From the NCBI RefSeq assembly GCF_056712565.1, contig NZ_CM160072.1: DNA of 64,000 nucleotides; one strand, given 5' to 3'. This document shows, in pieces, positions 8,120 through 59,985 of the stretch (the stretch's first letter is position 1; the number at the start of each line of letters is the position of its first letter). Both the position numbers and the translations under genes were made by a program. The notes below the pieces were generated by a model that saw nothing but the letters and a program-made list of their open reading frames with translations, ran no database searches and was not told where the DNA came from.

Positions 8120-8206
8120 TGGTGCGAGGGGGGGGACTTGAACCCCCACGTCCGTAAGGACACTAACACCTGAAGCTAGCGCGTCTACCAATTCCGCCAC
8201 CTTCGC
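8120..8206 (-). tRNA. leuV: tRNA-Leu (anticodon CAG), 87 nt including CCA
   Basis: Reverse complement reads GCGAAGGTGGCGGAATTGGTAGACGCGCTAGCTTCAGGTGTTAGTGTCCTTACGGACGTGGGGGTTCAAGTCCCCCCCCTCGCACCA; long variable arm typical of tRNA-Leu. Gene name assigned by order. Confidence 0.9.
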
Positions 8207-8240
8207 ACAGTCATCTTACTTTTTTTGATATCGCCTCGTT

Positions 8241-8327
8241 TGGTGCGAGGGGGGGGACTTGAACCCCCACGTCCGTAAGAACACTAACACCTGAAGCTAG
8301 CGCGTCTACCAATTCCGCCACCTTCGC
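8241..8327 (-). tRNA. leuP: tRNA-Leu (anticodon CAG), variant copy
   Basis: Same 87-nt sequence as neighbours except one base (window position 8280, a instead of g; C to U in the tRNA variable arm). Confidence 0.85.
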
Positions 8328-8355
8328 CCAGTGCGAGCAATATCAACGTGGTTTT

Positions 8356-8442
8356 TGGTGCGAGGGGGGGGACTTGAACCCCCACGTCCGTAAGGACACT
8401 AACACCTGAAGCTAGCGCGTCTACCAATTCCGCCACCTTCGC
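8356..8442 (-). tRNA. leuQ: tRNA-Leu (anticodon CAG)
   Basis: Identical to the 8120-8206 copy; promoter-proximal member of the three-gene tRNA operon. Confidence 0.9.
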
Positions 8443-8641
8443 ATACCATCAATTCTTAAAAAGAATTGCTACCACGGAGGCGCATTCTAGTGGTTTTCAG
8501 CTTTTCGTCAATAGTTAATTATCGACAGAGGTGTAATTGCTGGAAAAATATCCATCAGCGGATTGTGGATAATTCGTTTGTCGGTCAGATAAGGCGTGTA
8601 CGCCGCATCCGACACGGTATGCGGCGACATATATCAGATAC

Positions 8642-14383: not shown

Positions 14384-15457
14384 GTGGGGCAGCGAATACC
14401 TGTAACGCTTGGTAATATTGCGCCGTTGTCGCTAAGGCCGTTCCAGCCTGGACGGATTGCTCTGGTGTGCGAAGGCGGCGGACAACGTGGAATTTTCACG
14501 GCTGGCGTGCTGGATGAGTTTATGCGCGCGCAGTTTAATCCTTTCGATCTTTATCTCGGCACATCTGCCGGGGCGCAGAACCTCTCGGCGTATATCTGCA
14601 ATCAGCCCGGTTACGCGCGCAAAGTCATCATGCGTTACACCACAAAACGCGAATTTTTCGATCCATTGCGCTTTGTCCGTGGAGGAAATCTTATCGATCT
14701 CGACTGGCTGGTGGAGGCCACCGCAAGCCAGATGCCGTTGCAAATGGACACCGCAGCGCGGTTATTTGACAGCGGCAAATCGTTTTATATGTGCGCCTGT
14801 CGTCAGGATGACTATGCGCCGAATTACTTTTTGCCAACTAAACAAAACTGGCTGGATGTGATTCGCGCCTCCAGTGCGATACCTGGCTTTTATCGTAGCG
14901 GAGTGTCGCTGGAAGGTATTAACTACCTGGATGGTGGGATCAGTGATGCGATCCCGGTTAAAGAGGCGGTAAGGCAGGGAGCAAAAACGTTGGTCGTCAT
15001 CCGCACTGTGCCGTCACAAATGTACTACACGCCACAGTGGTTCAAACGCATGGAACGCTGGCTGGGTGACAGTAGCCTGCAGCCGCTGGTCAATCTGGTG
15101 CAGCATCATGAAACCAGCTATCGTGAGATTCAGCAATTTATTGAGAAACCACCGGGCCAGCTGCGGATATTCGAAATTTATCCGCCGAAGCCATTGCATA
15201 GTATTGCGCTCGGCAGTCGGATTCCGGCGCTGCGTGAAGACTATAAACTTGGGCGTTTATGTGGGCGTTATTTTCTGGCAACGGTCGGTAAATTATTGAC
15301 TGAAAAAGCGCCGCTGAGCCGCCATCTGGTGCCGGTGGTGACGCCGGAGTCGATCGTTATTCCGCCTGCGCCAGTCGCCAACGATACGCTGGTTGCTGAA
15401 GTGAGCGACGCTCCGCAGGCGAACGACCCGACATTTAACAATGAGGATCTGGCTTGA
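14384..15457 (+). CDS. yjjU: Patatin-like phospholipase-family protein YjjU
   Basis: ORF-track frame 14348..15457; GTG at 14384 gives MGQRIPVTLGN...; oxyanion-hole motif CEGGGQRG and GTSAG serine nucleophile motif. Confidence 0.9.
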   Translation: MGQRIPVTLGNIAPLSLRPFQPGRIALVCEGGGQRGIFTAGVLDEFMRAQFNPFDLYLGTSAGAQNLSAYICNQPGYARKVIMRYTTKREFFDPLRFVRGGNLIDLDWLVEATASQMPLQMDTAARLFDSGKSFYMCACRQDDYAPNYFLPTKQNWLDVIRASSAIPGFYRSGVSLEGINYLDGGISDAIPVKEAVRQGAKTLVVIRTVPSQMYYTPQWFKRMERWLGDSSLQPLVNLVQHHETSYREIQQFIEKPPGQLRIFEIYPPKPLHSIALGSRIPALREDYKLGRLCGRYFLATVGKLLTEKAPLSRHLVPVVTPESIVIPPAPVANDTLVAEVSDAPQANDPTFNNEDLA

Positions 15458-16233
15458 TTTGCCGTTTTATCGACACCCACTGCCATTTTGATTTCCCGCC
15501 GTTTAGTGGCGATGAAGAGGCCAGCCTGCAACGCGCGGCACAAGCGGGCGTAGGCAAGATCATTGTTCCGGCGACAGAGGCGGAAAATTTTGCCCGCGTG
15601 CAGGCGTTAGCGGAAAAATATCAACCGCTGTATGCCGCATTGGGCTTACATCCTGGTATGTTGGAAAAACATAGCGATGTGTCTCTTGATCAGCTACAGC
15701 AGGCGCTGGAAAGGCATCCGGCGAAGGTGGTGGCGGTGGGGGAGATCGGTCTGGATCTCTTTGGCGACGATCCGCAATTTGAGAGGCAGCAGTGGTTACT
15801 CGACGAACAACTGAAACTGGCGAAACGCTACGATCTGCCGGTGATCCTGCATTCACGACGCACGCACGACAAACTGGCGATGCATCTTAAACGCCACGAT
15901 TTACCGTGCACTGGCGTGGTTCATGGTTTTTCCGGCAGCCTGCAACAGGCCGAACGGTTTGTGCAACTGGGCTACAAAATTGGCGTAGGCGGGACTATCA
16001 CCTATCCACGCGCCAGTAAAACCCGCGATGTCATCGCAAAATTACCGCTGGCATCGTTGTTGCTGGAAACCGACGCACCAGATATGCCGCTCAATGGTTT
16101 TCAGGGGCAGCCTAATCGCCCTGAACAGGCCGCCCGTGTGTTTGCCGTGCTTTGCGAGTTACGACCGGAACCGGCGGATGAGATTGCCGAAGTGTTGCTT
16201 AATAACACCTATACGTTGTTTAACGTGCCGTAG
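15454..16233 (+). CDS. yjjV: TatD-family metal-dependent hydrolase YjjV
   Basis: 259-aa ORF from TTG; N-terminal IDTHCHFDF TatD motif; overlaps yjjU stop by 4 nt. Confidence 0.9.
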   Translation: MICRFIDTHCHFDFPPFSGDEEASLQRAAQAGVGKIIVPATEAENFARVQALAEKYQPLYAALGLHPGMLEKHSDVSLDQLQQALERHPAKVVAVGEIGLDLFGDDPQFERQQWLLDEQLKLAKRYDLPVILHSRRTHDKLAMHLKRHDLPCTGVVHGFSGSLQQAERFVQLGYKIGVGGTITYPRASKTRDVIAKLPLASLLLETDAPDMPLNGFQGQPNRPEQAARVFAVLCELRPEPADEIAEVLLNNTYTLFNVP

Positions 16234-16448
16234 GCCGGACAAGGCGTTTACGCCGCATCCGGCCGTTGGCGCACAATGCCTGATGCGACGCTGACGCGTC
16301 TTATCATGCCTACAAGTCTGTGCCGAACCGTAGGCCGGATAAGGCGTTCACGCCGCATCCGGCAGCTGGCGCACAATGCCTGATGCGACGCTTGACGCGT
16401 CTTATCATGCCTACAGGTCTGTGCCGATCCGTAGGCCACATCCGGCAT
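16231..16448. repeat. BIME/REP cluster: ~100-bp unit tandemly duplicated with a third partial copy
   Basis: taggccggacaaggcgtttacgccgcatccggcc...tgcctgatgcgacgctgacgcgtcttatcatgcctacaagtctgtgccgaaccg (16231-16330) is repeated with a few substitutions at 16331-16431, then a fragment taggccacatccggc; each unit contains REP-type palindromes. Confidence 0.8.
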
Positions 16449-16449
16449 G

Positions 16450-17313
16450 TCACAAATATAGCGCCGGAAATATTAACCGGCTCACCCCGCGCTCCCGTAA
16501 CGCATCAGCCAGTTGTTCCACATCCTCCGGCGTGGCGCTCGGCCAGCTTTGCGCCTCGCCATACACGCCGTGGGCATGAAACGCGTTCAGGCGTACCGGA
16601 ACATCGCCAAGTCCCTTGATTAACGCCGCCAGTTCTTCGATATGTTGCAAATAATCCACCTGGCCAGGGATTACCAGCAAACGCAGTTCCGCCAGCTTAC
16701 CGCGCTCTGCCAGCAAACAGATGCTGCGCTTGATCTGCTGATTATCGCGTCCGGTTAATTGCTGATGACATTCGCTCCCCCACGCTTTGAGATCGAGCAT
16801 TGCGCCGTCACACACCGGGAGCAATTTTTCCCAGCCGGTTTCGCTCAACATGCCGTTACTGTCCACGAGGCAGGTGAGATGGCACAGTTGCGGATCGTTT
16901 TTGATGGCAGTAAACAGCGCCACCACAAACGGCAACTGGGTCGTGGCTTCGCCGCCGCTTACCGTTATCCCTTCAATAAACAGAACCGCTTTGCGGACAT
17001 GGTTAAGCACCTCGTCCACGCTCATGGATTGCGCCATTGGCGTAGCATGTTGCGGACACATCTTCAGGCAGGTATCACATTGCTCGCAGACAGCCGCGCT
17101 CCACGCCACTTTGCCGTCGACAATCTGCAACGCCTGATGCGGACACTGCGGCACGCACTCTCCGCAATCATTACAGCGCCCCATCGTCCACGGATTGTGA
17201 CAGTTTTTGCAGCGCAGATTGCAGCCCTGCAAAAACAGAGCCAGACGACTGCCTGGCCCGTCAACGCAGGAGAAGGGGATAATCTTACTGACTAAAGCGC
17301 ATCTGCTGTTCAT
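16450..17313 (-). CDS. yjjW: Glycyl-radical-enzyme activating enzyme (radical SAM) YjjW
   Basis: 287-aa ORF; radical [11 protein letters not shown] near N-terminus plus two ferredoxin-like clusters [12 protein letters not shown] and [12 protein letters not shown]. Confidence 0.9.
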
Positions 17314-30991: not shown

Positions 30992-31022
30992 ACCGGATGC
31001 GATGCTGGTGCGCCGCATCCGG
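30992..31022. repeat. REP-like palindrome between the antitoxin gene and the convergent ettA
   Basis: accggatgcgatgctggtgcgccgcatccggc: GCCGGATGCG/CGCATCCGGC stems; may act as a bidirectional terminator. Confidence 0.55.
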
Positions 31023-31033
31023 CATTTTACGCA

Positions 31034-35264: not shown

Positions 35265-35873
<609 letters not shown>

Positions 35874-43954: not shown

Positions 43955-44023
<69 letters not shown>

Positions 44024-44046
44024 CGCGTACAGGAAACACAGAAAAA

Positions 44047-44078
44047 AGCCCGCACCTGACAGTGCGGGCTTTTTTTTC
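44047..44078 (+). terminator. thr attenuator (leader terminator)
   Basis: agcccgcacctgacagtgcgggct hairpin followed by ttttttt, between thrL and thrA. Confidence 0.93.
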
Positions 44079-53594: not shown

Positions 53595-53694
53595 TGCCTG
53601 ATGCGCTACGCTTATCAGGCCTACGATCTTCTTGCAATATATTGAATTTGCACGATTTTGTAGGCCGGATAAGGCGTTCACGCCGCATCCGGCA
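53595..53694. repeat. REP/BIME element pair between mog and satP
   Basis: ctgcctgatgcgctacgcttatcaggcctac and gtaggccggataaggcgttcacgccgcatccggca, canonical REP palindromes. Confidence 0.7.
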
Positions 53695-57898: not shown

Positions 57899-57986
57899 TC
57901 GCCCTATAAACGGGTAATTATACTGACACGGGCGAAGGGGAATTTCCTCTCCGCCCGTGCATTCATCTAGGGGCAAATCAAAAAAG

Positions 57987-59221: not shown

Positions 59222-59374
59222 TTACTCGGATTCGTAAGCCGTGAAAACAGCAACCTCCGTCTGGCCAGTTCGGATGTGAACCTCACAGAGGTCTTTTCTC
59301 GTTACCAGCGCCGCCACTACGGCGGTGATACAGATGACGATCAGGGCGACAATCATCGCCTTATGCTGCTTCAT
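59222..59374 (-). CDS. hokC: Type I toxin HokC/Gef (small membrane toxin)
   Basis: Translation MKQHKAMIVALIVICITAVVAALVTRKDLCEVHIRTGQTEVAVFTAYESE (50 aa), Hok/Gef family. Confidence 0.93.
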   Translation of the reverse strand: MKQHKAMIVALIVICITAVVAALVTRKDLCEVHIRTGQTEVAVFTAYESE

Positions 59375-59431
59375 TGCTCTCTTCTCCTTGACCTTACGGT
59401 CAGTAAGAGGCACTCTACATGTGTTCTGCAT
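59222..59431 (-). CDS. mokC: MokC, overlapping reading frame translationally coupled to hokC
   Basis: Same frame, upstream ATG at 59431 giving MQNTCRVPLTDRKVKEKRA-MKQHK... (69 aa). Confidence 0.8.
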   Translation of the reverse strand: MQNTCRVPLTDRKVKEKRAMKQHKAMIVALIVICITAVVAALVTRKDLCEVHIRTGQTEVAVFTAYESE

Positions 59432-59477
59432 ATAGGGGGCCTCGGGTTGATGGTAAAATATCACTCGGGGCTTTTCT
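59423..59477 (+). ncRNA. sokC: SokC antisense RNA (approximate position)
   Basis: Placed only by the expected position relative to the mokC start in hok/sok loci; not verified by promoter or structure. Confidence 0.4.
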
Positions 59478-59985
59478 CTATCTGCCGTTCAGCTAATGCC
59501 TGAGACAGACAGCCTCAAGCACCCGCCGCTATTATATCGCTCTCTTTAACCCATTCTGTTTTATCGATTCTAATCCTGAAGACGCCTCGCATTTTTGCGT
59601 AATCAATCTTTAGTACATTGTTTATTTTAACTCTTATGTGCGTTTTCATTTACAAAAGTTGAGATTATGAACAAGAGGTTTAAGTTATGCCTGAATGGTG
59701 AGTTATTACTGGAGAAAGTAATAGAAGATACAAAATATTCTTGTACAGAATTGAATTTTCTTTTTGTGAGGAAAAATGTTTATAAATCAATGAGTGATAT
59801 TTAAAATCGACACACTTTTTGAAACACGATACCTCCACACCCGGGGGTAAAAGTAATCTGCGATCTCCATCACGCTTTGCCATTCACCTTTAAATATACT
59901 TTCTGAGTCGTTCTTAATCAAAATGAATTATCTGATGTATTGATTTCTATGGAACCATAAAAAAAATGAATGGAGAGCATATTAT

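Follow-up and report, generated by a model that had tools for sequence, protein, structure and literature searches.

The intergenic segment between yjjV and yjjW is, by its sequence organization, a BIME-2 array, an element of an already described kind and not a new one. It was studied within a stretch of 64,000 nucleotides of contig NZ_CM160072.1 (assembly GCF_056712565.1), hereafter the window. BIME-2 elements are defined by z2 and y REPs, a short S linker, and tandem copies that are alike within a locus and strain-variable in number (PMC3333891); the class originates from the scheme of Gilson, Bachellier and Hofnung, as relayed by Ton-Hoang et al. 2012 (PMC3333891). All of these traits that can be read from sequence were found between yjjV and yjjW, and the assignment of the array to BIME-2 is based on them. 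Taking together the anatomy, an origin by local amplification, the inferred mechanism of copy-number change and the inferred function, we consider it highly probable that the element is a standard BIME-2 array. The earlier note on this DNA described a BIME with REP palindromes, and this description is made more exact by the recognition of Y and Z2 REPs.

Organization of the array and its locus

A 901-nt query around the yjjV–yjjW gap is 100% identical to Escherichia coli strain ZJ3920, which identifies the window DNA as E. coli, and the same query matches 5,425 of 5,426 complete E. coli genomes. The identical locus of ZJ3920 is annotated in RefSeq with yjjV and yjjW on the two sides of the array, in agreement with the earlier note. 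The two genes are encoded on opposite strands (Table 1) and are thus convergent, and the array occupies the entire gap, as had also been proposed, and touches both stop codons. Translation of yjjV ends with ..FNVP*, and the first REP overlaps the gene at its final codon, CCG, and the stop TAG (16231-16233); the stop sits within the GTAG of Y REP no. 1, and the stem begins immediately 3' of it. On the other side, the yjjW stop (TCA, 16450-16452, minus strand) follows 3 nt (ATG) beyond the terminal Y' remnant. The record NC_000913 carries no annotated repeat features in the yjjV–yjjW gap, and the literature search yielded one paper that names both genes, a sigma-54 mapping study to judge by its title.

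The flanking genes of the window, yjjV and yjjW, share about 94-95% identity with their counterparts in most E. coli, with 4,411 of 5,423 genomes in the 90-95% band. The divergence represented by this identity seems high against that typical of E. coli core genes, and it may be due to recombination in the region. One O157:H7 strain (L012, H2495) has yjjI listed in its annotation as a frameshifted pseudogene.

Table 1. Coordinates of the array modules, flanking genes and other features in the window
Feature	Position	Strand	Description and source
yjjV CDS	15454-16233	+	metal-dependent hydrolase, 259 aa; ORF list, RefSeq annotation of identical ZJ3920 locus
BIME-2 unit 1	16230-16329	+	100 nt; Y, S linker, Z2, tail linker
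Y REP no. 1	16230-16263	+	GTAGGCCGGACAAGGCGTTTACGCCGCATCCGGC; GTAG at 5' end; variant C11/T20
S-type head-to-head linker, unit 1	16264-16277		14 nt; CGTTGGCGCACAAT
Z2 REP no. 1	16278-16313	-	GCCTGATGCGACGCTGACGCGTCTTATCATGCCTAC; GTAG on minus strand; 1-nt deletion variant
Tail-to-tail linker, unit 1	16314-16329		16 nt; AAGTCTGTGCCGAACC
BIME-2 unit 2	16330-16430	+	101 nt; Y 16330-16363, S 16364-16377, Z2 16378-16414, tail linker 16415-16430
Y' remnant	16431-16446	+	16 nt; GTAGGCCACATCCGGC; Y REP minus 18-nt hairpin core
yjjW CDS	16450-17313	-	glycyl-radical enzyme activase, 287 aa; ORF list, RefSeq annotation of ZJ3920
Three tandem tRNA genes	8123-8442		Rfam gathering-level match
Thr operon leader	43959-44078		Rfam gathering-level match
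BIME-1-like element	53596-53694		Z1 REP, 35-nt AT-rich linker, inverted Y REP
tpke11	57909-57986		Rfam gathering-level match
sok antitoxin RNA	59372-59524		Rfam gathering-level match

Modules follow one another in the same order in both units. The Y REP comes first, with its GTAG end leading; it has the pattern GTAGGCCGGAtAAGGCGTTcACGCCGCATCCGGC across units and is followed by a 14-nt head-to-head linker of the pattern aGyTGGCGCACAAT. The Z2 REP, of the pattern GCCTGATGCGACGCT(T)GACGCGTCTTATCATGCCTAC, lies in the orientation opposite to Y, and a tail-to-tail linker of 16 nt, ArGTCTGTGCCGAwCC, completes the unit. The tetranucleotide GTAG appears on the plus strand at 16230, 16330 and 16431, while CTAC at 16310-16313 and 16411-16414 represents GTAG on the minus strand. 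Each Y and Z2 REP of the units has GTAG/CTAC at the foot of its hairpin. The 14-nt linkers are of the short S type, as opposed to the 35-nt linker of the BIME-1-like element located elsewhere in the window.

Homology of the tandem units of about 100 bp, proposed in the earlier note, is borne out by pairwise comparison. Global alignment of units 1 and 2 gives 94 identical columns out of 101, with six substitutions and one indel, against 51.5 +/- 2.4% identity (maximum 58.9%) in shuffled controls; the unit frame used originally was displaced by 1 nt, without consequence, from the units 16230-16329 and 16330-16430. Repeat finding detected the same arrangement as direct repeats at 100/101-nt spacing, D1 (65 nt, 94% identity) and D2 (54 nt, 89%). 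Tandem Repeats Finder reported nothing at the window array, also with two local parameter sets, and detected the K-12 array at 4.1 copies, which points to a limit of sensitivity at about 2.2 copies and not to counter-evidence. The third partial copy described previously does exist at 16431-16446; it is an internally deleted Y REP, and not a unit truncated or cut by the gene.

Two open reading frames on the minus strand, 16248-16448 (66 aa) and 16310-16453 (47 aa), consist wholly of repeat sequence and were rejected as genes. They are almost certainly not genes and should not be annotated as such, although automated pipelines could call them.

Folding predictions assign about -21 to -24 kcal/mol to Y and about -14 to -15 kcal/mol to Z2 on either strand, with -21.2 (plus) and -24.0 (minus) for Y REP no. 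1, and -14.8 and -13.9, respectively, for Z2 REP no. 1. The predicted pairing of the Y' remnant reaches -4.2 (plus) and -4.4 kcal/mol (minus), compared to about -21 for an intact Y. For the RNA of the whole gap, folding z-scores against shuffled sequence are -5.75 on the plus and -6.21 on the minus strand. Predicted Y hairpins carry an internal loop between a stem of 6-7 bp and a stem of 4 bp, and thus exhibit the stem mismatch of the imperfect BIME-2 palindrome, a conserved feature needed for binding of TnpA-REP (PMC3333891). No intrinsic terminator (a GC-rich hairpin with a U-tract) was found at 16041-16917 on either strand, and no T-run follows any REP hairpin of the array.

The yjjV–yjjW array is the sole tandem array of Y and Z2 within the 64-kb window. 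Other REPs in the window include a further Z+Y pair at 35266-35345 and single Y-like REPs at ~8590-8625 and ~31000-31025, while the BIME-1-like element overlaps a match to Rfam ES036 (CssrF) at 53617-53659. Presence of the Thr operon leader (Table 1) suggests that the point at which standard chromosome numbering begins lies within the window.

Copy number, origin of the units and array junctions

To count units in different strains, copy number was read from the spacing between matched pieces of a joined query composed of the flanking genes. Two evenly spread samples were drawn from 5,423 matching genomes, yielding 118 usable rows, with at least one genome present in both samples. The number of units containing Z2 ranges from none (6 sampled genomes) through one (29), two (19), three (11) and four (21) to five (32), and more than five were found in none of the 118 rows. 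Strain variability of copy number, anticipated in the earlier note, is thereby documented, although the collection, in which laboratory K-12 derivatives are numerous, does not sample the species at random. K-12 has four units, the sampled O157:H7 strains two, and the sampled ST131 strains five. Both flanks lie within the joining limit in about 5,396 genomes, and very large arrays or insertions are therefore rare at most. Among TOP10 (H90), L1PEag1 (H210) and FORC_069 (H195), matches to yjjV and yjjW lie apart in two genomes, and one genome has an off-register gap of 238 nt.

Two alleles lack any Y-Z2 unit: L006, with only the flank and Y', and L007, with a single chimeric Y. Both look like complete deletions of the units. 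The 100-bp units would be gained and lost by unequal recombination between them or by slippage during replication. TnpA-REP, which cleaves and recombines BIMEs in vitro (PMC3333891), may contribute; RecA, slippage and TnpA-REP are indistinguishable as the mechanism when sequences alone are compared. In practical terms, short-read assemblies may collapse the array, and the length polymorphism of zero to five units could serve as a simple lineage marker (two in UTI89/APEC O1 and the closest relatives, four in K-12, five in ST131).

Variation among units of the yjjV–yjjW locus is confined to 17 of 101 alignment columns. Between units 1 and 2 of the window, linker identity is 86-88% (86% in the S linker), and nearly all units at this locus have in common a locus-specific variant of the Z2 stem, TATCATGCC (CATGCC, not CAGGCC), which is also present in units of E. 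albertii and E. whittamii. Locus-specific linkers and the common Z2 variant show descent of the units from one local founder and not from separate insertions, and the array arose by local tandem amplification of this founder unit.

The earlier note regarded the duplication as relatively recent, and this part of it did not hold. Unit 1 differs from unit 2 at seven positions and from unit 4 of L004 at only three, while unit 2 has three differences from the sole unit of strain E20, whose variants it shares. The 1-nt deletion in Z2 of unit 1 is also found in unit 4 of L004 and in units 3 and 4 of L010, and the Y variant of unit 1, GGACAAGGCGTTTACG, is common to the single Y of L007. Furthermore, the array has the same length in each of the 60 genomes whose flanks are most similar (including APEC O1, UTI89, IHE3034, UM146 and NU14), and in the one of them read in sequence, ZJ3920, it matches the window array without a difference. 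Outgroups among Escherichia and other genera were located with a degenerate yjjV pattern. In E. albertii, the gap holds Y-S-Z2-linker-Y with the same linkers, and in E. whittamii four homologous units with the same locus-specific linkers. A recent strain-specific duplication thus fails on two counts, as the units are not mutual closest relatives and the array is present in the 60 closest genomes. Closer units in foreign strains, relatives of equal array length and the outgroup units indicate that the unit types predate the window strain, and they are probably older than the split of E. coli from E. albertii and E. whittamii.

Two alleles of the junction with yjjV were distinguished, and both resulting C-termini are common. 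The ..FNVP* junction (259 aa, with CCG-TAG from the first Y REP) occurs in the window, K-12, E20, L007 and L010. The ..FNVRG* junction (260 aa, with its own stop) occurs in O157, L004, L006, L008, L009, L011 and L013, where 10 nt after the stop are followed by an eroded, hairpin-less Y (GTAGGCAGCATCCGGC). The ending ..FNVRG* is also that of yjjV in E. albertii, in which Y is full-length and somewhat degenerate, and in L028, in which Y is without the GTAG end. In E. whittamii, the yjjV stop lies inside GTAG.

At the opposite end, E. albertii has a full intact Y at the position of Y', and the corresponding REP, beside the yjjW stop, is without its hairpin in E. coli, E. whittamii and L028, each of which shows a different form of the loss. 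In E. coli, the 18-nt core of Y' was lost between GCC/GCCG direct repeats, and terminal REPs in general would erode by deletions across the hairpin at direct repeats of 3-4 nt. Loss of the hairpin beside the yjjW stop could reflect either instability of the palindrome or selection against a hairpin near the stop. That selection acts on the array junctions, through translation termination, and not on copy number, appears quite unlikely. If true, hairpin losses would represent recurrent selection to relieve REP-induced stalling of ribosomes at stop codons, and BIME polymorphism would be a natural dial on the levels of YjjV and YjjW proteins.

The same gap in other genera was also inspected. Unrelated, lineage-specific REP/BIME arrays are located in it in Salmonella arizonae (L051) and several Citrobacter (L041/L082/L050/L015), and no REP was found in the gap of C. 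amalonaticus or Enterobacter cloacae (loci L053 and L019). Seen across these sequences, REPs have repeatedly landed in the yjjV–yjjW gap.

Putative function and alternative explanations

By analogy with BIME-2 elements studied elsewhere, the array is likely to stabilise and attenuate RNA at 3' ends in both directions, and to serve as a gyrase site. In the 3' ends of the transcripts of yjjV and, from the other side, of yjjI-yjjW, the GC-rich hairpins would block 3'-exonucleases, and would partly attenuate read-through into the opposite gene. At the level of DNA, Y REPs are candidate sites of gyrase binding and cleavage, located where positive supercoils from convergent transcription would accumulate. 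As precedents, REP325 was reported to be a partial Rho-dependent terminator and mRNA stabiliser in the yjdMN operon, and REPs between convergent genes to correlate with higher expression of both (bioRxiv 10.64898/2026.03.23.713779). Members of BIME-2 are bound and cleaved by DNA gyrase in vivo, and its cleavage sites are over-represented in them, chiefly in y REPs (PMC6379681); yjjV and yjjW are not named in the text of that study or in the portions of its supplements consulted. BIME-2 elements have also been proposed as topological barriers (PMC10592627).

The element is dispensable, as seen in L006 and L007, which have no Y-Z2 unit, and in C. amalonaticus and Enterobacter cloacae, in which the gap contains no REP. 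With such natural alleles, any function must be modulatory, or else the array is neutral or selfish. The latter is a serious rival, and we regard it as a distinct possibility, if short of probable: REP doublets would have been seeded by a REP-associated transposase and tolerated in the convergent gap, where they disrupt nothing, their number drifting by unequal recombination. Strains left with only an eroded Y' or a single Y fit this explanation, as do a copy number spread broadly from zero to five with no single favoured value, the decay of terminal REPs, and the unrelated arrays, or none, in the gap of related genera. Against it, REP/BIME elements have been kept or have reappeared in this gap across Escherichia, Salmonella and Citrobacter, and BIME-2 elsewhere experimentally affect termination, mRNA stability and gyrase binding. 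Drift of a neutral or selfish array is compatible with the preferred explanation, from which it differs solely on relevance for fitness.

A role in tuning translation of the flanking genes would be expected if, by analogy, hairpins of REPs placed no more than 15 nt from a stop codon cause terminating ribosomes to stall and protein output to fall (Liang, Rudd and Deutscher 2015, as summarised in PMC12306157), so that the junctions set the levels of YjjV and YjjW. We consider this unlikely. The TAG stop of yjjV inside the GTAG of Y1, with the stem directly after it, the separate stop of the ..FNVRG* allele 10 nt ahead of a hairpin-less Y', and the threefold loss of the hairpin at the yjjW stop (E. 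coli, E. whittamii, L028) are all in line with such tuning. However, the REP located 2-3 nt from the stop of yjjW is intact in Salmonella arizonae and C. gillenii, simple instability of terminal palindromes may suffice, and independent erosion events are few in the sample. It is very unlikely that each unit encodes a nucleoid-associated small RNA like naRNA4, which, in line with the proposal made for REP325, would bind HU and help to condense the chromosome. Both units match Rfam RF02564 (naRNA4) on the plus strand above the gathering score of 59.5 bits, unit 1 at 16233-16310 with 73.7 bits and unit 2 at 16333-16411 with 76.5 bits, and minus-strand scores of 51.5 and 48.3 bits remain below it. 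The architecture of two hairpins, Y and Z2, is as in naRNA4 (PMC4550694). The Rfam model, however, in effect recognises any Y-Z2 unit of BIME-2, so that a passing score is evidence of similarity in sequence and structure and does not extend to function. In addition, neither deletion nor overexpression of REP325/naRNA4 measurably changed nucleoid volume, and a stable ternary complex of HU, DNA and RNA was not formed (bioRxiv 10.64898/2026.03.23.713779, whose authors include one from the original naRNA4 study), results of the 2026 preprint by which chromosome condensation through naRNA4 and HU is weakened. As for the repeat being an assembly artefact or chance similarity, the silence of Tandem Repeats Finder at the site might speak for it; this is refuted, to practical certainty, by the comparison with shuffled sequences (93% identity between units versus ~52%) and by the same array length in 60 independently assembled complete genomes, with identical sequence in ZJ3920, and the same program finds the four-unit array of K-12.

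For E. coli genomes, BIME-2 arrays, the variation in their number of copies between strains, and the roles proposed for them (stabilisation and attenuation of mRNA, gyrase sites, substrates of TnpA-REP) are textbook knowledge, and the yjjV–yjjW array matters little beyond its correct annotation.

Comparison with known REP-based elements

As a standard BIME-2 array, the element shares with the class the alternation of Y and Z2, a short head-to-head linker, tandem copies in strain-variable number and an intergenic position at gene 3' ends. It departs from the class in no essential trait; local peculiarities are the CATGCC stem of Z2 in most units, the eroded terminal Y, and the yjjV stop inside the first Y. 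The inverted pair of REPs at gene 3' ends is a likeness to BIME-1 (RIP, RIB) as well; BIME-1, however, is characterized by Z1, an L linker of ~35 nt with an IHF site and a single copy, whereas the yjjV–yjjW array has Z2, a 14-nt linker and tandem organization. Identification as a Replication Risk Sequence was rejected. The 222-nt length between the flanks equals that of the 222-bp RRS by coincidence, and RRS elements are found in the vicinity of dusC and lysO and possess a G-quadruplex (PMC10592627).

The closest counterpart by position is the allele of K-12 MG1655, which is orthologous, with the same flanks and linkers, the yjjV stop in the first Y, and a terminal Y' of the same kind. It differs in the 419-bp gap, in four units instead of two, and in other unit variants, and its Y' is GTAGGCCGTATCCGGC, compared to GTAGGCCACATCCGGC in the window.

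The array at another locus, REP325 of K-12, consists of six 100-nt units in the sequence of that locus, and naRNA4 is one of its six Y+Z2 repeats (Qian et al. 2015, PMC4550694). Similarity includes the Y-Z2 period of 100 nt, identity of 97% in the second window Y and 95% in Z2, and naRNA4 scores above the gathering level for both window units. The linkers are unrelated, with identities of 57% (S) and 47% (tail) between unit 2 and REP325. The two arrays also differ in setting: REP325 lies between yjdM and yjdN, co-directional genes of one operon, and has six units, whereas the array in the window is placed between convergent genes and has two.
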